Assembly: GCA_963804085.1 (NCBI GenBank)
Contig: CAWDOQ010000016.1
Location: 75,288 to 139,287, forward strand
DNA from: Chlamydiia bacterium
Lineage (GTDB): Bacteria > Chlamydiota > Chlamydiia > Chlamydiales > Rhabdochlamydiaceae
Length of the DNA: 64,000 nt
Reading direction: 5' to 3'
The notes under the pieces: model-generated
Database searches by the model: none
What the model was told of the DNA's origin: nothing
Seen by the model: only the letters and a program-made list of their open reading frames with translations
Position numbers and translations under genes: made by a program
Shown here: positions 48,579 to 58,945 of the stretch, in pieces
Layout of the letters: the number at the start of each line of letters is the position of its first letter
How positions within the stretch are numbered: the stretch's first letter is position 1

Positions 48579-49730
48579 CTAAAGGACGGAATTAGTGTCG
48601 TTTGCGTCTTTTTGGTCGTTTAGGTCGTTTCTCGGCACTTTATCGATGCGCTCCAAGGTTTCGAAGTCTAGCGTTGTCGAAGCTGCTCCCATCTCTTGAA
48701 ACTTGCGGGCGGTGACGAGCACGCGCGATTCGAGCGAGCCCATCGCCTTGTTGTAGGCGTCGATCGCAGAGGAGAGTCCGCGGCCCATCTTGGTCCAGTG
48801 GCCACTCATGTCGACAAGGCGCTTATACATCTCGTGGCCGAGCTCGCGCACCTCTTCAGCATGGCGCGAAAGACTCTCCTGCTTCCAGCCATAAGCTACC
48901 GAGCGCAGAAGAGCGATCAGTGTGGTAGGTGTTGCCAGAATCACATTGCTATCTGCCCCGACTTCGATCAGAGCGGGATCAAATTCGAGCGCTGCGCTAA
49001 AGAATGTCTCGGCAGGCAAAAAGAGAACGACAAATTCTGGCGTGGGTTGAAAGCGCTCCCAGTAGGCTTTTTTGCTCAAGCTTGCCATGTGTTGTCTTAT
49101 CTGACGCGCATGGTCGCGCATCTTAGCTTCTTTTGCTTTTTCATCTTGCATGTGGATCGCTTCGAGATAGGCTTCGAGCGGTGCTTTTGCATCGACTACC
49201 ACCTGCCTTCCGCCGGGGAGATGCACGATCAGGTCGGGTCTTAGATTTCCCTCTTCATGCATGCCGCTCTGCTGCTCAAAAAAGTCGCAGTGGCTGAGCA
49301 TGCCGGCAAGTTCCACCACACGTCTTAGTTGGATCTCTCCCCATCTTCCGCGCGCGAGTGGCGAGCGAAGGGCTTTCACTAGATTGGCTGTCTCATGGCG
49401 CAGCTCTTTTTCTGTTTGCAAAAGCGCACGCACTTGTTCTTGCAAAACAACATGGTCTCCCTTGCGCTCTTTTTCAAGCTGCTGCATGCCTAGGCTGATC
49501 TTGCTTAAGGTCTCTTTGACAGGGGCGACCATCTCGGTCGCAAGATCTATGAAAGAGCGGTTGTTTTTTTCTAGAGCATCGTGGGAGAGCGCTTTGAATG
49601 TCTCGGCCATGCTCTTATTCTCCTGCTCAGAAAAGGAGAGACGCAAAACTGCCTCCTTCTTTTTTTCTCTTTCACGTATCCAGAGCCACAAAAGAACAAA
49701 AACAGCGAGACATAAAGCGTATAGGAGCAT
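48579..49730 (-). CDS. rmuC: DNA recombination protein RmuC
   Basis: RGRWGEIQLRRVVELAG, RPDLIVHLPG...VDAKAP, FVVLFLP.E, ATPTTL. Confidence 0.95.
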   Translation of the reverse strand: MLLYALCLAVFVLLWLWIREREKKKEAVLRLSFSEQENKSMAETFKALSHDALEKNNRSFIDLATEMVAPVKETLSKISLGMQQLEKERKGDHVVLQEQVRALLQTEKELRHETANLVKALRSPLARGRWGEIQLRRVVELAGMLSHCDFFEQQSGMHEEGNLRPDLIVHLPGGRQVVVDAKAPLEAYLEAIHMQDEKAKEAKMRDHARQIRQHMASLSKKAYWERFQPTPEFVVLFLPAETFFSAALEFDPALIEVGADSNVILATPTTLIALLRSVAYGWKQESLSRHAEEVRELGHEMYKRLVDMSGHWTKMGRGLSSAIDAYNKAMGSLESRVLVTARKFQEMGAASTTLDFETLERIDKVPRNDLNDQKDANDTNSVL

Positions 49731-49732
49731 CT

Positions 49733-50569
49733 TTAGTCGACCTCTTCCTCTTCGGGTTCAAACTCTTCCAAGGTCTTCGACTTTTTACCTGCTATCAAAC
49801 GTATTGCTGACAAGACAAGCGCAAGCAAGATATACCCCCAGGAGACTGTGGCGAGCATGATGGGGAAATAGTAGAGAATGCCATAGAGAACAAAGATCGC
49901 AAAAATGACTGTGAGAAAAACCAGTTGAAAGGAGGGAACGCGGAAGTGGAGTACTTTTAAACTGGGGAATTTCCAGCGGCTGACCATGAAATAGCCGAGG
50001 ATGATCATCAGCGTTGGAAGAATAAACGCCTCAGTTCTTGGTGCTAGATGCGTGATACCCTCTCCAAAGGGCGAGGAGAGAAAGAGGTTGGCAGAAACTG
50101 CGGCAATCGCAGCGGCAGGAATGGGCAGACCGGTAAAATGCTTCTTTTGCGCCTCTGCCATATCCGAGTTGCTCTTCGCTTCTCCTGCTTTTACATTAAA
50201 GCGCACGAGACGGAGCACCCCTCCAATCGAGTAGAGCATTGCACCAATAACTGCAAAAAAAGAGAGGCCGGTACCCTGCTCTAAAGAGAGGCTTTTCAAG
50301 AGAAGAACAGAGGGGGCGACACCAAAAGAGATCGCGTCGGCTAAGGAATCGAACATAAAACCAAACTCGCTCTGCGCACGAAAGACGCGCGCAATCGCCC
50401 CATCTGCAAAGTCGGCAAAGGCAGCGACAAGTAGAAGGAGCGCGGCGGATTGGAGGAGTTGATAAGTCCCCGCACCGGGCTCTACCATGTTGACTTTGAA
50501 AATCACAAAGAGTCCGCAGGCTAGGCCAAATGCTGTGATGATATTGGGGAGGAGATTGATTTGTTTCAT
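49733..50569 (-). CDS. pssA: CDP-diacylglycerol--serine O-phosphatidyltransferase
   Basis: DFADGAIAR...SEFG..FDSLADAISFGVAP CDP-alcohol motif; RLVRFN, FTGLP.P. Confidence 0.93.
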   Translation of the reverse strand: MKQINLLPNIITAFGLACGLFVIFKVNMVEPGAGTYQLLQSAALLLLVAAFADFADGAIARVFRAQSEFGFMFDSLADAISFGVAPSVLLLKSLSLEQGTGLSFFAVIGAMLYSIGGVLRLVRFNVKAGEAKSNSDMAEAQKKHFTGLPIPAAAIAAVSANLFLSSPFGEGITHLAPRTEAFILPTLMIILGYFMVSRWKFPSLKVLHFRVPSFQLVFLTVIFAIFVLYGILYYFPIMLATVSWGYILLALVLSAIRLIAGKKSKTLEEFEPEEEEVD

Positions 50570-50861: not shown

Positions 50862-53800
50862 ATGCGTAATAAAAGCCCTACTTCCCCAGCAAACCTCCTC
50901 GGAGCAATCAAAGAGAAGGATCAGTCTAATATGAGCGAAAAACAGTTCAGTGTCGTCAAGAGAAATGGCTCTCTTGTCCCCTTCAGAAAAGAGCGGATTT
51001 CTCTAGCGATTGAAGCCGCATTTCGCGACCTGAAAAAGGTGGCAAAAGAAGCTCACCTTCCTACCGACATAAAAGAAGCGGTCGAAGAGGTGACAGATCG
51101 TATAGCCGAACAACTGGTCACACTCGCTGAAAAGGGCGCCTCTATCACGGTAGAAGGCATTCAAGATCTGGTCGAAGTGACTCTGATGAAGTGCGACCAT
51201 CACGATGTCGCAAAGGGCTACATCCTCTATCGCGATCAGCATAAGGCGCTCCGCGAAGACTCTCCACAAAATCTCAAAGTACAGAGAAAAGACGGCACTT
51301 TTGCCCGTTTTAATCCAATGAAGATCGCCTCTTCGATTGAAGAGAGCTTCCGCCGCACACGAAAGCTCGAAACCGCACCCTCTCCTCAAGAGGTGGTCGA
51401 TGGAGTGAATCTTCTCTCGCAGCGCATTGTGGCGCGCGTAGTCGCTCTCTCCAAAGCAGGACAAGTAATAACAGCCGCAGCAATTGAAGATGAGATCGAA
51501 CAGCTCTTAATGCGCGAAGGGTTTTGGAACGTAGCTAAAGAGTACATTCTTCATAGAGCCTCTATAGGCGAGCAGACACAACCTCAGGCTGTATTATCCT
51601 CAGTAGATGAGAGAAAATCCATTCGCACTTTCTCCATCGTGCAAACAGATGGGACAACCCGAACGCTTAATGAATCGGAGCTGCATGCAAGACTCAAATT
51701 TGCCTGCCGTGGTCTAGGAGAGCAGGTCTCCTCCTTTGAGCTTTTCGAGAGCGTGATCATCAACTTCTACGAAGGAATGAAAGAGAGCGAGCTGGACCAG
51801 GCCTATATTTTGGCTGCGCGCTCTAAGATCGAAGTGGAGCCGGCTTATTCACAAGTGGCGTCGCGCCTCCTCTTAGACAACTGCTACCGCGAAACGCTGG
51901 CAACAAATGCATCCGACCCCTCTTTAGAATCCAAGCACCGCGCCTATTTTAAAAGCTACTTCAAGCATGCGATCTCGATCCAGAGGATCCATCCCGATCT
52001 TCTGCAGTTCGACCTGGACATGCTAGCAGGGGCAATCCAGCTGCAGCGCGACGATCTCTTCTCCTACTTAGGGCTGCAAACTCTGTATGATCGCTACTTC
52101 ATCCACGAGATGCAAAAACGGCTCGAGACGCCTCAGATCTTCTGGATGCGCGTCGCAATGGGCCTCGCCCTCTGTGAAAAGGAGCGCAAGAATGAGCGCG
52201 CGATCGAGTTCTACGACGTGCTCTCCAAGTTCCTCTTCGTCTCTAGCACACCGACTCTTTTCAACTCGGGCACGATGCATCCGCAGCTCTCCTCCTGCTA
52301 CCTCTCGACTGTCATGGATGATCTGGGACACATCTTCAAGGTCATCTCGGATGACGCACAGCTCTCCAAGTGGGCAGGCGGCATCGGCAACGACTGGACA
52401 AACGTACGTGCAACAGGCGCAGTCATCAAAGGGACAAACGGCCGCAGCCAGGGCGTGATCCCCTTCTTAAAAGTCGCGAACGACACAGCAGTTGCAGTCA
52501 ATCAGTGCTTTGATCCGCGCACCTTCCTCTATACAAACAGTGGCATCAAGCCGATTGCAGATGTGCATGTCGGCGATCTCGTCCTCGGAATCAGCGGCCA
52601 ATACCGCGAAGTAATGGAAGAGTACTCCTACAAACAAAATGGTCCGATGCTTGAGCTCGATGTTAAGCACTCTCTTGGCCCCATTACTGTTACGACAGGT
52701 CACCCTTTCTATGCTTTACGCGGTGTGCCGATGGAGCAAGCTAATGAACGCACTCTCGAGTGGCTCTCAAAAGGGAAGATCTCTTGCGAATGGGTCGACG
52801 CAGGTGAATTACAAAAAGGGGATTACATCGCTCAGATTATCCCAAAAGAAGTTGTTCCCGTTCCCGGCTTTACGGAAGAGGATGCAAGACTTTACGGCAT
52901 CCTTCTCGGCGATGGCCACCTCTCTAAAAATGTGAGCTCTTCTTACTCCTTTACTCAAGAAGATCTCTGTGACACAAACGGTTCCAAACATATCGCGCCT
53001 CGCTTCTCTCATCTACCAGAACGACAAACACTTGCTCTTTTACATGGAATTTTGGAAACAAGTGGCAATGTTTCTCGCGGCAAAGAGATCATATTTACAA
53101 ATACTTCGCTGCCGCTCATTGAAGGCATTCGTTATCAGCTCTTGAGGCTAGGCATCCCAACAACTGGCAAACTGCGCAATCGTGCTAAAGGTCTTTATGA
53201 GCTGCGCATCCCCGCAGTAAAAGAGATCGCGGAGCGCGTCGGGTGTAAGCCTCTCACTAAAACGAATTGGCTCACTATCGCGGGTCACCTGTTCAGCCGC
53301 GTGCGTAAGACGAGTGCTACCACTCCCCTTTCGACCGTGCGCGACCTACAAGTCGACTGCGACGAGTCTTATATGACAACCGCAGGTCTTGCCCACAACG
53401 GGGGCAAGCGCAAAGGCGCGATGTGCGCCTACTTGGAGACTTGGCACCTCGACATCGAAGACTTCCTCGATCTGCGCAAGAACACGGGCGATGAGAGACG
53501 CCGTACGCATGACATGAATACGGCTAACTGGATCCCCGATCTTTTCATGAAGCGCGTGAGCGAAAATGGCGTCTGGACTCTCTTTAGTCCAAGCGATGTA
53601 CCCGATCTGCACCACCTCTATGGCGCTGCATTTGAAAAGCGGTACAAAGAGTATGAAAAGGCAGTCGATGAGGGCAAAATCAAGCTCTTCAAAAAGATAG
53701 AAGCGCTGCAGCTTTGGCGCAGAATGCTGAGCATGCTCTTTGAAACCGGCCATCCTTGGATCACTTTCAAAGATCCTTCTAACATCCGTTCGCCGCAAGA

Positions 53801-54995
53801 CCACGTGGGTGTGGTGCACAGCTCGAATCTCTGCACAGAGATCCTGCTGAACACAACTGCAGAAGAGACTGCCGTTTGCAACTTGGGCTCTGTCAACTTG
53901 GTTGAGCACATGACAAGCAAGGGTCTAGATGAGAAGAAGGTCTCTCAGACGATCCGCACAGCGGTGCGCATGCTCGACAACGTGATCGACATCAACTACT
54001 ACCCGACAGCCGAAGCCAAGAATGCCAACTTGCGCCATCGTCCGATCGGTCTTGGCATCATGGGCTTCCAAGATGCTCTTTACATGCAGAACATCAGCTA
54101 CGCAAGCCACGAAGCGGTCGAATTTGCAGACTCGAGCATGGAGATGATCTCCTACTACGCGATCCTCGCCTCTTCTGAGCTAGCTCTTGAGCGAGGCACC
54201 TACTCGACCTATAAGGGATCCAAGTGGGATAGAGGCATGCTGCCGATAGACACGATCGCACTCTTAGAAAAAGAGAGGGGCGGCTATCTCGAGATGGACA
54301 GAAGCTCTAAGATGAATTGGGATCTTGTGCGCGAGAAGGTCAAAAAGCATGGTGTGCGCAATAGCAATACGATGGCGATTGCACCAACTGCTACGATCTC
54401 AAATATCACGGGAGTCACTCAGTCTATCGAGCCTATGTACAAGCACCTCTTCGTCAAGTCTAACTTGTCGGGAGAGTTCACGGTCGTCAACACCTTCTTA
54501 GTAAATAAACTGAAGGAGCTCGGCATATGGGACAACGCGATGCTAGACGATCTGAAATACTTCGACGGATCGATTACAGAGATCGAGCGTATCCCTCAAG
54601 AGGTCAAGCAGCTCTTCTTGACTGCTTTCGAAATCGATCCAGAATGGATAATCGAATGCGCAAGTAGACGCCAGAAGTGGATCGATATGGGCCAGTCGCT
54701 CAACCTCTATATGGCAGAGCCGAGCGGGAAAAAACTGCACCAGATGTACCTCTTCTCCTGGACAAAAGGATTGAAGACCAACTACTATTTGCGCACACTT
54801 GCCGCGACGCAGATTGAAAAATCTACGACCGACATCAATGCCCGTGGCTTGCAGCCGCGCTGGATGAAGAACAAGTCCGCATCTAGCGACATCCAGATCG
54901 ATCGCGAGACGCCTGTTGTAGAAGAGATTGTCGAAAAGAAAAAAGATAAACCGATAAGCTGCAGCCTCGAAGAGGGCTGTGAAAGCTGTCAATAA
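50862..54995 (+). CDS. nrdA: Ribonucleotide reductase class I alpha subunit with three ATP-cones and an intein
   Basis: VVKRNG, VQRKDG and IVQTDG cone starts; TPTLFNSG, QLSSCYL, SNLCTEI, VCNLGS, APTATIS, C-terminal CESCQ. Confidence 0.97.
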   Translation: MRNKSPTSPANLLGAIKEKDQSNMSEKQFSVVKRNGSLVPFRKERISLAIEAAFRDLKKVAKEAHLPTDIKEAVEEVTDRIAEQLVTLAEKGASITVEGIQDLVEVTLMKCDHHDVAKGYILYRDQHKALREDSPQNLKVQRKDGTFARFNPMKIASSIEESFRRTRKLETAPSPQEVVDGVNLLSQRIVARVVALSKAGQVITAAAIEDEIEQLLMREGFWNVAKEYILHRASIGEQTQPQAVLSSVDERKSIRTFSIVQTDGTTRTLNESELHARLKFACRGLGEQVSSFELFESVIINFYEGMKESELDQAYILAARSKIEVEPAYSQVASRLLLDNCYRETLATNASDPSLESKHRAYFKSYFKHAISIQRIHPDLLQFDLDMLAGAIQLQRDDLFSYLGLQTLYDRYFIHEMQKRLETPQIFWMRVAMGLALCEKERKNERAIEFYDVLSKFLFVSSTPTLFNSGTMHPQLSSCYLSTVMDDLGHIFKVISDDAQLSKWAGGIGNDWTNVRATGAVIKGTNGRSQGVIPFLKVANDTAVAVNQCFDPRTFLYTNSGIKPIADVHVGDLVLGISGQYREVMEEYSYKQNGPMLELDVKHSLGPITVTTGHPFYALRGVPMEQANERTLEWLSKGKISCEWVDAGELQKGDYIAQIIPKEVVPVPGFTEEDARLYGILLGDGHLSKNVSSSYSFTQEDLCDTNGSKHIAPRFSHLPERQTLALLHGILETSGNVSRGKEIIFTNTSLPLIEGIRYQLLRLGIPTTGKLRNRAKGLYELRIPAVKEIAERVGCKPLTKTNWLTIAGHLFSRVRKTSATTPLSTVRDLQVDCDESYMTTAGLAHNGGKRKGAMCAYLETWHLDIEDFLDLRKNTGDERRRTHDMNTANWIPDLFMKRVSENGVWTLFSPSDVPDLHHLYGAAFEKRYKEYEKAVDEGKIKLFKKIEALQLWRRMLSMLFETGHPWITFKDPSNIRSPQDHVGVVHSSNLCTEILLNTTAEETAVCNLGSVNLVEHMTSKGLDEKKVSQTIRTAVRMLDNVIDINYYPTAEAKNANLRHRPIGLGIMGFQDALYMQNISYASHEAVEFADSSMEMISYYAILASSELALERGTYSTYKGSKWDRGMLPIDTIALLEKERGGYLEMDRSSKMNWDLVREKVKKHGVRNSNTMAIAPTATISNITGVTQSIEPMYKHLFVKSNLSGEFTVVNTFLVNKLKELGIWDNAMLDDLKYFDGSITEIERIPQEVKQLFLTAFEIDPEWIIECASRRQKWIDMGQSLNLYMAEPSGKKLHQMYLFSWTKGLKTNYYLRTLAATQIEKSTTDINARGLQPRWMKNKSASSDIQIDRETPVVEEIVEKKKDKPISCSLEEGCESCQ
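52506..53399 (+). mobile_element. Intein (298 aa) in nrdA with degenerate LAGLIDADG endonuclease; +1 residue Gly
   Basis: AVNQ|CFDPRT..., block B TTGHPF, block C GILLGDG, block E GILETSG, block F/G VRDLQV...AHN|GGKRKGA. Confidence 0.93.
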
Positions 54996-55010: not shown

Positions 55011-56054
55011 ATGCAAGCGATTGAAAAAGAGGGCAAGTCCAAACGCGTACAAGTCGCCGAAAAAAGGCTGATCAACTGCCACAAGGTCGACGTCAATCAG
55101 CTCATGCCGCTCAAGTATAAATGGGCATGGGAGCACTATCTCAACGGCTGCGCCAACCACTGGATGCCGACAGAGGTGCCGATGGGAAAAGATATCGAGA
55201 CATGGAAATCGAATGTGCTCAGTCCCGATGAGAAGCGCGTCATCATGCGTAACTTAGGCTTCTTTAGCACAGCGGAGAGCCTTGTCGGAAACAATATCAC
55301 CCTTGCCATCTTTAAGTTCGTGACCAATCCCGAAGTGCGCCAGTACTTGCTTCGTCAAGCTTTTGAAGAGGCGATCCATACGCACACCTTCCACTACATC
55401 GTAGAGTCACTCTCGCTCGATCAGGGCGAGGTGTTCAACATGTACAACGAGATCAACTCGATCCACGATAAAGACGCGTTTGAAATGAAGCTGACGGAAG
55501 CGATGCTCCAAGATGGCTTTACGACATCGACACCTGAAGGAGCGCAGAAGTTTCTAGAAAACCTGATCGGCTTCTACATCATCATGGAAGGGATCTTCTT
55601 CTACAGCGGCTTTGTGATGATCCTCTCCTTCCACCGCCAGAACAAGATGACCGGTATCGGCGAGCAGTTCCAATATATCCTGCGCGACGAGACGATCCAT
55701 CTCAACTTCGGCATCGACCTTATCAACGGAATCAAAGAGGAGAATCCCGATCTTTGGACACCTGCTTTTCAAGCGCATGTAGTTGAACTCATTAGAGAAG
55801 CAGTAGAGCTCGAAGTGCTCTATGCCGAAGACTGCCTGCCAAAAGGGATCTTAGGTCTTACGGCGCCGATGTTCCGCGAATATGTGCAGTATATCGCAGA
55901 CAGACGTCTGGAACGTATCGGACTAAAAGCGATCTACCGCTCTAAAAACCCCTTCCCATGGATGAGCGAGACGATCGACCTCGGCAAAGAGAAGAACTTC
56001 TTTGAAACACGCGTGACAGAGTATCAGTCCTCCTCTACTTTGACTTGGACTTAG
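55011..56054 (+). CDS. nrdB: Ribonucleotide reductase beta subunit, class Ic (R2c, Mn/Fe type)
   Basis: STAES (Glu first ligand), EEAIHTHTF (Phe at the radical-Tyr position), [16 protein letters not shown]. Confidence 0.95.
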
Positions 56055-58945
56055 AAAATTTGAAAAAGAATGAGAAAATTGGCGACTTTGTCGTCACAAA
56101 GGTAATGCCTATCGAGGAGCTGAAAACCACGCTCCTCGAGCTTGTGCATGAACCAACCGGTGCGCAAGTCATGCACCTTGCAAATGAGGATCCGGAAAAT
56201 CTATTTTGCCTCTCTTTTCGCACCCTTCCGACAGACTCGAAAGGTGTGGCCCACATCTTAGAGCACACAGTGCTCTGCGGCTCAAAAAAATATCCGATCA
56301 AAGACCCCTTCTTTGCAATGACACGCCGCAGCTTAAACACCTACATGAATGCGCTAACAGGTTCCGACTTCACCTGCTATCCCGCAGCTAGCCAGGTGGA
56401 AAAGGATTTCTACAATCTGTTCGAAGTCTACATCGATGCTGTCTTTAATCCCGAACTTAAGAAGGTGAGCTTTTTGCAAGAGGGACACCGCCTAGAATTC
56501 GCAGAAGCGAACAACCCCAAAAGCCCTCTGGAATTTAAAGGGATCGTCTTTAACGAGATGAAGGGAAGCATGGCATCACCCGACGCGCGCCTCTGGCACA
56601 CGCTCATGGAAGCCCTCGTGCCCGATCTTCCTTATTCGCACAATGCAGGAGGCGATCCTGTACACATCCCCGAGCTCACCTACGATGAGCTCACGAGCTT
56701 CCATCAAACCTACTACCATCCAAGCCGCTGCCTCTTCTTCTTTTATGGCAACCTCCCCTTGAAGAGACATTTAGACTACCTTGAAGAGCATGCGCTTAAA
56801 AATGTGCGTCCTCTTCCCCCAGTTCCATCACTGCCTCTCCAAAGACGTTTTAAAAAGCCGGTGACCACTTCCGGACACTATCCGATTAATGAAGGGGAAA
56901 GCCTTTCTAGCAAAACCATTCATGCCTTTGGCTGGCTCACCACGCCTGTTCTCGAGCAAGAAGAGGTGCTCGCCTTAAGCGTTTTAGATTCTATTTTGAT
57001 GGACACCGACGCCTCTTTATTAAAACTCCCTCTTTTAAAATCGGGTCTTTGTACGCAAGCAGATGCCTACATGGATATCGAGATGAGCGAGGTGCCCTAC
57101 TTGATCGCCTGCAAAGGATGCGAAAAAGAGAGCGGTGAGAAGTTGGAGAAGCAGCTGTTAGAGACGTTGCATGATATCGTCAAGAAAGGCATTCCTGCTC
57201 CCCTTATCGAAACGGCGATCCACCAGCTGGAGTTTGCAAGGACAGAGATCACAGGCGATGCCTCTCCCTTTGGCCTCACTCTTTTTATGCGCTCGGCCCT
57301 TGCAAAACAGCACGGGTGCCCTCCTGAGAATGCGCTCAAGATCCACTCCCGTTTCCAAGAGCTGATCGCGCATACCAAAGATCCCCGTTATCTACCAATG
57401 CTGATCCAAAAATACTTTTTGGACAACGCGCACCGTGTGCGGCTCGTCTTAACTCCCGACCCGACACTTTCCAATCGAGAGCTTGAAAAAGAAAAAGAGA
57501 CGCTCAGCAAAATACAAAAAAAACTCTCGCCCAAAGAAACAGAGCAGATTTTAAAACAGGCAGAGGAGCTAGAGCACTACCAACAAGAGACAGAGAAACA
57601 GAACATAGAGATCTTGCCTAAGGTGACCCTGGATGATGTGCCTGTTCTAATCCACGATCTTACCCTCAAGCAAGAAAAGGAGGGTGAGCTCAGCGTCTTT
57701 CACCACACCGCTTTTACCAACCATATCCTCTACGCCGACCTGGTCTTTGATATGCCGGAGATTGACGAGGAGGAGCTCCCCTATGTGCAGCTGCTCTTTG
57801 CTCTCATCCCCGAGCTTGGCGCAGGCAAGAGAAGCTACGCCGAAAATCTCGCCTACATCCAATCGCATACAGGCGGTATTGCTATCGCCACGCATCTCCA
57901 TCCACAGGTAGAAGACCACAACCAGTTAAAGCCCTCTTGGAACCTGCATAGCAAGGCCCTCTTTCGTAAACGGGACAAACTCTTCTCTCTAATTAAAGAG
58001 ATAGCCGAAAGCCCGCAGTTAAACGACAAGGAGAGGCTCTCTGAGCTCATTTTGCAGATGAGCACCGCACTCGAAAGCCATTTTAACAAAAATGCTCTAC
58101 GCTATGCACTCCAGCTGGCGCTGAGCGGCATCTCGGTTTCTGGCTATATCAATGAGTGTTGGGGCGGGCTAAACTACTACAAAATGATCCTGGCTCTTGC
58201 ACACGATCTTCCCAAAAAATTGCCCGGCCTCATCGATCGGTTGGTAGCCTTAAAAGAGAAGCTCTTTTGCGTAAACTCTCCCTCTTTAGTCTTGAGCTGC
58301 GATGAGGAGATGTACCAGAAGCTAAAGAGCGAGCGCTTCTTTGACTTGAACAAGCTCCCCTTAAAAAAGGCAAAACCTTGGACAGGAAACTACGCCTACT
58401 CGCCCACCCAGTCCCATGCGCGCGCCATCTCCACTCCTGTTGCATTCACCGTGCAAGCGCATAAATCGGTCGGCTATCTCCATCCTCATGCTCCAGCTCT
58501 TGCTACCGTCATGCACCTGTTCGAAAACAAGATACTGCACCGTTACATACGAGAAAAAGGTGGCGCATACGGTGCCGGCGCCTCTTATGGCGCATCGGCC
58601 GGAGTCTTCTACTTCCACTCTTATCGCGATCCGCACCTAGCCAGCACACTCGCCACCTTTGGCCATGCAATTGACGAGATCGCTCGCGGCGATTTCAATG
58701 AGCGCGAGCTAGAAGAGGCAAAGCTCGGCGTCATCCAGCATCTGGATGCACCCCTTGCGCCCGGAAGCCGCGCCATGCAAGCCTACGGCTGGTTTAAAGA
58801 GGGAAAGACAAAAGAAAGGCGCCAGCACTTTAGAGACACGCTGCTGGCACTCACGAAACAACAGATCATTCACATGGTCCAGAGTGAAATCCTCCCCAAA
58901 AAAAGAGCGGCACGATCGTCACCTTTGCAGGATCCGAGCTCCTAG
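56045..58945 (+). CDS. M16C presequence-protease-like zinc metallopeptidase (C-terminus probably extends to ~59001 after an A-run indel)
   Basis: HILEH, NALT...[32 protein letters not shown]. Confidence 0.93.

Follow-up and report, generated by a model that had tools for sequence, protein, structure and literature searches.

Inteins followed by glycine in loop 2 of class I ribonucleotide reductase: a chlamydial nrdA gene and its widespread intein family

How can a protein be rejoined after removal of an intein when the residue that follows the intein offers no side-chain nucleophile? This question is raised by an nrdA gene on a stretch of 64,000 nucleotides from a Chlamydiia bacterium of the Rhabdochlamydiaceae (assembly GCA_963804085.1, contig CAWDOQ010000016.1, positions 75,288 to 139,287), which was analysed as a whole and is referred to as the window. 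The gene encodes NrdA, the large subunit of a ribonucleotide reductase (RNR), and is interrupted by an intein that ends in His-Asn and is followed by glycine as the first residue of the C-extein (Gly+1). Cys, Ser or Thr at this position is the nucleophile of splicing steps 2 and 4 (PMC4031507; all papers are cited here for excerpts of their text). As we read the data, the element is a genuine intein that has been retained vertically and belongs to a large LAGLIDADG intein family homing into the loop-2 NQ-GG codons of class I RNR large-subunit genes, and the sequence comparisons suggest that a Gly-compatible maturation route for NrdA probably exists.

The nrdA product, 1377 aa in length when read from the first ATG, was identified by Pfam (Ribonuc_red_lgC at 1.5e-186, two ATP-cone stretches and Ribonuc_red_lgN) and by the NCBIfam equivalog PRK12365 (1545.6 bits, cut-off 1350); its closest solved structure is Pseudomonas aeruginosa NrdA (5IM3, 1079.7 bits). 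The presence of an ATP-cone, an all-alpha and a barrel domain, together with the adjacent nrdB gene, identifies it as the large subunit of a class I RNR. The barrel domain is broken, since the Pfam match ends at profile position 72 and restarts at position 65 after 298 residues. At the N junction the DNA reads AAT CAG and then TGC (52500-52508), encoding N, Q and Cys1, and at the C junction CAC AAC is followed by GGG GGC AAG CGC AAA GGC GCG (53394-53414), encoding H, N and then G, G, K, R, K, G, A. The raw sequence is in exact agreement with the original prediction, which had placed an intein of 298 aa with Cys1, TxxH, a terminal His-Asn and Gly (GGG) at +1 at 52506-53399; the insert contains the block F Asp as well.

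The insert had been described as a Hint domain of 298 aa. The Hint assignment holds, whereas the insert is not Hint alone: what is left of a LAGLIDADG endonuclease interrupts the Hint domain. LAGLIDADG_3 matches the insert alone with 36.1 bits (8.1e-9, cut-off 22.5), and the Pfam Hint models match it only under their cut-offs. The insert, extended by 12 flanking residues at either end, was modelled with AlphaFold2 from an alignment of 11 rows; the model reached a mean predicted local distance difference test score (pLDDT) of 84.6 and a predicted template modelling score (pTM) of 0.85. The best structural matches obtained with Foldseek were PI-SceI (1EF0, 1VDE), TliVMA (7QSU), PhoVMA (7QST) and PI-PfuI (1DQ3), with E-values from 1.2e-15 (PI-SceI) to 1.1e-9 and template modelling (TM) scores of up to 0.64 (TliVMA). 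Lower in the list followed gp41-1 (1.3e-5), hedgehog 1AT0 (3.4e-4) and, at rank 28, 2LWY, a bacterial intein-like (BIL) domain. By sequence none of the solved structures is close; PI-PkoII (6e-4) preceded 2LWY (0.007), which stood behind gp41-1 as well. The model thereby predicts the fold of endonuclease-bearing class 1 inteins. The four inteins matched best are 12-18% identical to that of the window and belong to a class that uses Cys, Ser or Thr at +1 (PMC4031507; the +1 residue of each chain being unchecked). The element shares with this class the block A Cys, the block B TxxH, the block F Asp, the block G HN, the Hint fold and the in-frame insertion, and departs from it in a single respect, namely Gly in place of Cys, Ser or Thr at +1.

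In alignments, residue 1 of the C-extein corresponds to E. coli R1 residue 295 and to residue 443 of 5IM3. The intein is accordingly inserted between the equivalents of Q294 and G295 of E. coli R1, four residues ahead of R298, in agreement with the predicted insertion in the specificity loop. Loop 2 is located at the dimer interface, with the specificity site on one side and the active site on the other. Within this loop, Q294 hydrogen-bonds the substrate base and R298 touches its phosphates (bioRxiv 10.1101/2021.07.31.454598, citing Zimanyi et al. 2016). In intein-less relatives the loop-2 stretch was unbroken in all 7 of one set and in 39 of 40 of another, the 40th being a mis-hit of the pattern; because these alleles read through the junction, removal of the segment from Cys1 to the terminal Asn restores a normal NrdA exactly. 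Metagenome contigs from other organisms (runs X1 and X7; window position 53403) likewise join AVNQ straight to GG, so that intein-less alleles co-occur in samples with relatives of the intein allele.

The glycine is not peculiar to the window. The same intein was found at the same site in 10 of 60 related genomes, nine of them among the 36 of the window's own family and one in another family, and all ten read NQ, C...HN and GGKRKGA. Over these ten alleles and the window, all four codons GGG, GGC, GGA and GGT are used for Gly+1. Moreover, the insert matches 950 proteins at E<=1e-3, and the best 120, all of them NrdA, without exception carry Cys1 and HN followed by GG (107 junctions were scored by pattern and 13 by eye). 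The matches come from Rhabdochlamydiaceae, Chlamydiota, Chlamydiae, Verrucomicrobiota, Burkholderiales, Methylococcus, Thiotrichales and others; the original prediction, which knew of no such intein from Chlamydiae, is corrected here by the many chlamydial members. In a set restricted to a single genome for each species, relatives of the intein are encoded by 365 genomes, and among the 80 loci retained from these Gly+1 is present in 78 of 78 that were parsed (76 HN-G and 2 RN-G), one of the two others lying at a contig end and one having escaped parsing. By their record titles, the family members are distributed over Chlamydiota, Pseudomonadota, Actinomycetota, Acidobacteriota, Chloroflexota and Armatimonadota. 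Two short metagenome contigs cover the C junction, one of 153 nt being identical to 53273-53425 and one of 151 nt showing 2 differences to 53304-53454; both may originate from the source sample. On these comparisons, Gly+1 is a conserved state and not a sequencing error, and the window's intein is a new addition to an old and extensive family that occurs in many phyla.

To delimit the family, a profile of the 11 inteins was run against 1.84 billion cluster representatives (50% identity), which returned 6389 proteins at E<=0.001, 133 of them at E<=1e-30. Loop-2 C junctions were readable in 79 of the best 150 and comprised 56 HN-G, 1 RN-G and 22 HN-S (SGKR.GS). Hence, tabulation of the +1 residues at this site, as suggested in the original prediction, confirmed the prevalence of Gly+1 and in addition revealed relatives with Ser+1 that had been missed. 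The window's intein shares both the site and significant similarity with this loop-2 (NQ-GG) family, which, judged by its junctions and blocks, is a variant of the class 1 inteins that deviates in one defining property, the +1 nucleophile. Inteins at other sites that were touched by the same profile served as an internal control: Cys, Ser or Thr occupies +1 at 35 of 38 junctions there, whereas the three exceptions seem to be truncated or are damaged copies at the RNR site. The lack of a +1 nucleophile is therefore specific to the loop-2 site of RNR.

On a tree of 70 complete inteins the Ser+1 members form two nested clades (18 and 2 rows), all other rows having Gly+1; this requires 2 changes between Gly and Ser, compared with a mean of 17.6 for shuffled labels, and the window's intein belongs to a supported clade whose 17 rows all have Gly+1. 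The larger Ser+1 group resides in an RNR clade in which 21 of 21 intein alleles have Ser+1, and of 98 alleles without an intein at this site 74 read QG... and 24 read QSGKR, showing that Ser is tolerated in loop 2 of this clade. With respect to the intein itself, Pro follows the block B His (window 52701-52706) in 44 of 50 Gly+1 rows but in none of the 20 Ser+1 rows, where Gln, Asp, Glu, Lys or Leu is found instead; six Gly+1 rows lack the Pro. The His-Pro pair may be an adaptation to splicing with Gly+1.

Some relatives deviate at other junction residues. The penultimate His is replaced by Arg (RN then GG) in three otherwise intact Gly+1 inteins (L130, L136 from Halochromatium, and P0140), and one protein (P0179) has Ser1 in place of Cys1 and continues with GSKRKG, thus Gly+1 and Ser+2. 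Many homologous NrdA proteins carry extra inteins (P0054, P0055, P0128, P0130, P0159 and others), one protein reaching 2297 aa; a recurrent extra site, SSNL-CVAPET, lies just ahead of the catalytic Cys and has a canonical junction.

We asked whether the host depends on this gene. In the source genome (G000; 24 contigs, 91% complete), the matches to PF02867 are the two halves of this nrdA only, and a profile search with PF13597 gave zero matches. The 10 other intein-bearing relatives likewise contain a sole PF02867 locus and zero PF13597 matches, making 11 of 11 with G000. The Gly+1 nrdA is the only RNR detected in the cultured strains Thiothrix eikelboomii ATCC 49788 and T. caldifontis DSM 21228 (completeness not given) as well; in three other cultured strains examined a second PF02867 locus is present. 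As there is no other RNR in this host, the splicing domain would still be needed there.

For the exteins, a tree of the barrel domain (50 rows) was computed after deletion of the intein. The end branches of intein-bearing exteins range from 0.064 to 0.27, compared with a median of 0.19 for all 50 rows; by this measure, exteins of intein alleles evolve no faster than those of alleles lacking the intein and are under constraint, and nrdA is not a dead allele. The original prediction would have fallen with a dead allele beside a second functional RNR, and the gene proved to be both the sole RNR found and constrained. For six pairs of intein alleles the ratio of nonsynonymous to synonymous substitution rates (dN/dS) was affected by saturation of dS (>=1.6 or undefined); the defined ratios were 0.05-0.07 for exteins and 0.09-0.29 for intein parts. 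Presence of the intein on the extein tree requires 8 changes, 3 of them forced by supported branches, and shows no stronger clustering than shuffled labels do (82 of 500 shuffles gave as few changes), a pattern that fits repeated gain and loss. An apparent frameshift 32 codons past the intein in nrdA of one relative (L018, G004:C9) was rejected, the break being a run of N in the assembly.

In contrast to the splicing blocks, the endonuclease of the window's copy has decayed. The intein of the nearest relative (P0004) comprises 378 aa versus 298 aa in the window, and two in-frame deletions are apparent (Table 1). Identity to P0004 amounts to 498/547 in the N-extein, 260/298 in the intein and 506/531 in the C-extein, the N-terminal Hint part being ~94% identical. 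The Asp of a LAGLIDADG motif is catalytic. It is kept in both motifs in 8 of 11 alleles and lost from both in G008 and G050, and the related contigs have G and A at 53061-53062, which reads as a GAT (Asp) codon where the window encodes Ser. An active LAGLIDADG endonuclease is expected to have an acidic residue in each of its two motifs and a complete core between them; the window's copy has Asp in the first motif but Ser in the second and a core shortened by the deletions, so that the homing endonuclease is very probably dead. Cys1, TxxH, Asp280 and His-Asn are untouched. A decayed endonuclease next to intact splicing blocks is what one would predict of a host that continues to require the splicing chemistry.

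Comparison with known systems revealed that such junctions are already in print. The intein in the RNR alpha subunit of CroV (PMC5784728, supplementary file 3, sheet 'RNR_RIR inteins'; marked as an InBase entry) is inserted at the same site after an N-extein ending in ...VNQ, starts with CF.P.T and ends in ...VHN like that of the window, carries a LAGLIDADG endonuclease and is ~360 aa long. Its C-extein reads SGRRKG, where Ser+1 allows canonical splicing, whereas that of the window reads GGKRKG (PMC5784728); Ser+1 representatives with a CroV-like SGRRKGSF flank fall within the window's intein family. The same sheet contains RNR inteins of Pandoravirus inopinatum, P. salinus (intein 1) and P. 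dulcis at the same loop-2 site, with ...YVDQ before and GGGKRKG after the intein and hence Gly+1; unlike the window's element, these are viral, much longer and located in eukaryote-type RNRs. In the main text of Green, Novikova and Belfort (2018; PMC5784728) the missing nucleophile passes without comment, the three places with 'nucleophil' being silent on it. Likewise, the RNR intein of Methylococcus capsulatus Bath (MCA2543), noted in 2004 (PMC517821) and listed as allele rir1-b in 2014 (PMC4071816, Table 3), appears in the excerpts of both papers without mention of its +1 residue. A Methylococcus sp. protein (P0108; the sequence of MCA2543 itself was not seen) reads NQ, CF...AHN and GGKRKGA like the window. 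A search of the literature, with subscription journals and InBase outside its scope, revealed no discussion of a missing +1 nucleophile in RNR inteins, and the combination of 'intein' and 'Gly+1' retrieved zero papers; as far as this literature shows, the Gly+1 junction of RNR has been printed but neither noticed nor tested.

The lack of a +1 nucleophile is the feature that, according to reviews, sets BIL domains apart from inteins (PMC4031507, PMC7664689). Type A BIL domains such as 2LWY of Clostridium thermocellum share with the window's element Cys1, the terminal His-Asn and the absence of this nucleophile. However, BILs are devoid of an endonuclease, whereas the window's element has a LAGLIDADG_3 match and occupies a conserved active-site loop; in addition, it is nearer to true inteins than to 2LWY by both sequence and fold. 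BILs are said, after work of Amitai et al. from 2003, to reside in variable, non-conserved host proteins, which are described as non-essential. A large subunit that was likewise broken by a mobile endonuclease is found in phage Aeh1, where NrdA-a and NrdA-b show activity as two chains (Crona et al. 2011, PMC3045599); this system differs from the window's in that an intein is absent, the break point is another one and special assembly tails are present (PMC3045599). The RNR intein of Aquifex aeolicus (PMC8772380) was rejected as a parallel, since it is located in R2 and followed by Cys.

How, then, could NrdA mature? The best explanation in our view, held with about even confidence, is ligation without a +1 side-chain nucleophile, by Asn cyclisation and subsequent attack of the glycine amine on the Cys1 thioester. 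An N-S acyl shift at Cys1 would generate a thioester between Gln548 and Cys1, and cyclisation of Asn298 would release the alpha-amine of Gly+1. This amine would be kept by the thioester through the active site of the Hint domain and through the RNR barrel, which would have folded by then, and its attack would result in the Gln-Gly peptide bond. Glycine provides the least hindered amine, and the location of both exteins in one folded barrel could keep the ends together. We infer the removal of the intein itself as well as each of these chemical steps, and favour aminolysis because it is the only described chemistry able to make the Gln-Gly bond here. A precedent, behind which reportedly stand studies by Dassa in 2004 and Aranko in 2013, is the splicing of BIL domains. 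Type A BILs, with a terminal His-Asn and no +1 nucleophile, are described as capable, in experiments, of ligating their flanks via a thioester, Asn cyclisation and aminolysis (PMC4031507). With somewhat less than even confidence, we extend this proposal to the whole NQ-GG family, which might represent a further mechanistic class of true mobile inteins that employs Gly+1 aminolysis with the RNR barrel as template.

A number of observations weigh against ligation by aminolysis. Canonical inteins with Ala at +1 cleave rather than splice, Asn-Gly is the sequence most prone to deamidation, and the C-extein loses its covalent hold once Asn has cyclised. In type A BILs cleavage products prevail, and one BIL spliced only when its Tyr+1 was changed to Cys (PMC4031507); the reaction is thus known as inefficient. 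Within the family, zero intein columns of a 72-row alignment separate Gly+1 from Ser+1 members at an 80% criterion, and the association of His-Pro with the +1 residue amounts to only 2 independent contrasts on the tree (sign test p 0.5). The status as sole RNR is by itself no proof of need in this order, because PF02867 is absent in 5 of 61 related genomes (G038, G040, G041, G046 and G047; 84-100% complete), suggesting that some lineages may live without a class I/II RNR. The literature searched contains no experiment on any family member, and phage Aeh1 demonstrates that NrdA can be fully active as two chains (PMC3045599). Accordingly, the main competitor is a two-chain enzyme, in which thioester hydrolysis and Asn cyclisation without ligation would leave fragments 1-548 and 847-1377, nicked in loop 2. 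We consider this rather unlikely, although double cleavage would require the same conserved Cys1, His66 and Asn298 and is the main outcome of HINT domains without a +1 nucleophile (PMC4031507, PMC7664689). The Aeh1 holoenzyme assembled from the products of two genes has full specific activity (PMC3045599, PMC2677866), but its NrdA is split elsewhere, between the equivalents of Cys439 and Cys462, and depends on special tail sequences; moreover, 0 of 1200 other nrdA genes are split, which was taken as pressure for a continuous chain (PMC3045599). A nick between the equivalents of Q294 and G295 would lie within the very loop that reads effector and substrate, and the retention of Ser in the Ser+1 clades (22/22 and 21/21) suggests that ligation matters at this site. 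If such a nick were tolerated, intein-free two-gene versions of nrdA broken at this position would be expected, though no search for them was made. Aminolysis and the two-chain enzyme, both already put forward in the original prediction, are the two leading options, and the present data do not separate them.

The remaining explanations fare worse. Ligation could proceed by another route, through a host ligase or transpeptidase, through another nucleophile with a branched intermediate, or as conditional or partial splicing with a regulatory role. Although the junction is ancient and occurs in many lineages, the intein blocks look no different from those of Ser+1 relatives, and the Pro after the block B His hints at adaptation. 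A host factor shared by a family that spans the bacterial phyla listed above and, by the printed table, giant viruses is nevertheless improbable, no Cys, Ser or Thr is conserved close to +1 (some members, such as P0082, lack the Cys at +9), and formation of the final Gln-Gly bond would still require prior release of the Gly amine. We regard these routes as improbable. Permanent retention of the intein, with an enzyme that functions despite 33 kDa of extra protein in loop 2, seems very improbable, given the position of this loop between specificity and active sites at the dimer interface and the invariance of the splicing residues even where the endonuclease has decayed, which would be senseless for a passive insert. 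A sequencing error at 53400-53402 or a pseudogene is hardly credible: although no single public sequencing run contains more than 0.14 of the stretch's sampled words and no RNA run was listed, so that the GGG codon was compared with contigs only, and although a few relatives live without a detectable RNR, Gly+1 was found in 10/10, 120/120 and 78/78 same-clade junctions and is retained through synonymous codon changes, which is the opposite of the Ser, Cys or Thr codon that would have overturned the original prediction. Moreover, the frame of 1377 codons is intact, extein branches are short, and no RNR besides this one was detected in two cultured Thiothrix strains. As far as can be judged from sequence, an artefact or dead allele is refuted.

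What is at stake is a bona fide homing intein that lacks a +1 nucleophile and interrupts the only RNR of many bacteria, some of them cultured. Either direct aminolysis would serve true inteins as a route of splicing or an essential enzyme would work while nicked in its specificity loop, and both would be new. If true, a Gly-ligating intein would provide scar-free ligation, without the Cys, Ser or Thr scar that limits intein-based protein engineering. With regard to annotation, an intein finder that requires a nucleophile at +1 would overlook such elements or set their boundaries wrongly.

Table 1. Features of the nrdA locus and its intein in the window
Feature	Position	Strand	Evidence	Remarks
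nrdA, RNR large subunit	50862..54995	+	Open reading frame, Pfam, NCBIfam	Split by intein
N-extein	50862..52505	+		Ends in AVNQ; Gln548 (52503-52505) is the equivalent of E. coli Q294, loop 2
Intein	52506..53399	+	Sequence, Pfam, model	Hint splicing domain and LAGLIDADG endonuclease remnant
Cys1 (TGC), block A nucleophile	52506..52508	+		Invariant in 11/11 relatives and 71/72 of the wider family
Block B, Thr63-x-x-His66, then Pro67	52692..52706	+		His in 72/72 of the wider family
LAGLIDADG motif 1, LYGILLGDGHL	52890..52922	+		Asp136 retained
Site of in-frame deletion 1	52930..52986	+		Nearest relative +62 residues; related metagenome contig 241 nt vs 55 in the window
LAGLIDADG motif 2 remnant, ALLHGILETSGNV	53034..53072	+		Ser186 (AGT, 53061-53063) for the catalytic Asp of 8/11 relatives
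Site of in-frame deletion 2	53176..53195	+		Nearest relative +18 residues; related contig 72 nt vs 18 in the window
Block F Asp280	53343..53345	+		In 71/72 of the wider family
Block G His297-Asn298 (CAC AAC)	53394..53399	+		Intein C-terminus; in 72/72 of the wider family
Gly+1 (GGG)	53400..53402	+		C-extein residue 1, equivalent of E. coli G295; no side-chain nucleophile
C-extein	53400..54995	+		Begins with GGKRKGA; holds NLCTE, YY pair and C-terminal CESCQ; stop codon counted in
nrdB, RNR small subunit	55011..56054	+	Pfam	Directly 3' of nrdA

The coordinates in Table 1 are based on the first ATG of nrdA. Because the database copy of the product (P0003) comprises 1354 aa, the true start is probably Met24 at 50931. 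The roles of the motifs NLCTE, YY and CESCQ in the C-extein are assumed here to be the usual ones. The product of nrdB has a Phe at what we take to be, from the R2 motif, the site of the class Ia radical Tyr, presumably like the chlamydial class Ic R2. A PF14890 profile search of the genome for further inteins gave 0 matches, this profile missing even the intein in nrdA. The neighbouring genes are ordinary: RmuC and a CDP-alcohol phosphatidyltransferase are encoded upstream on the minus strand (48579-50569), and an M16C/PreP-type peptidase is encoded downstream (56045-58945).

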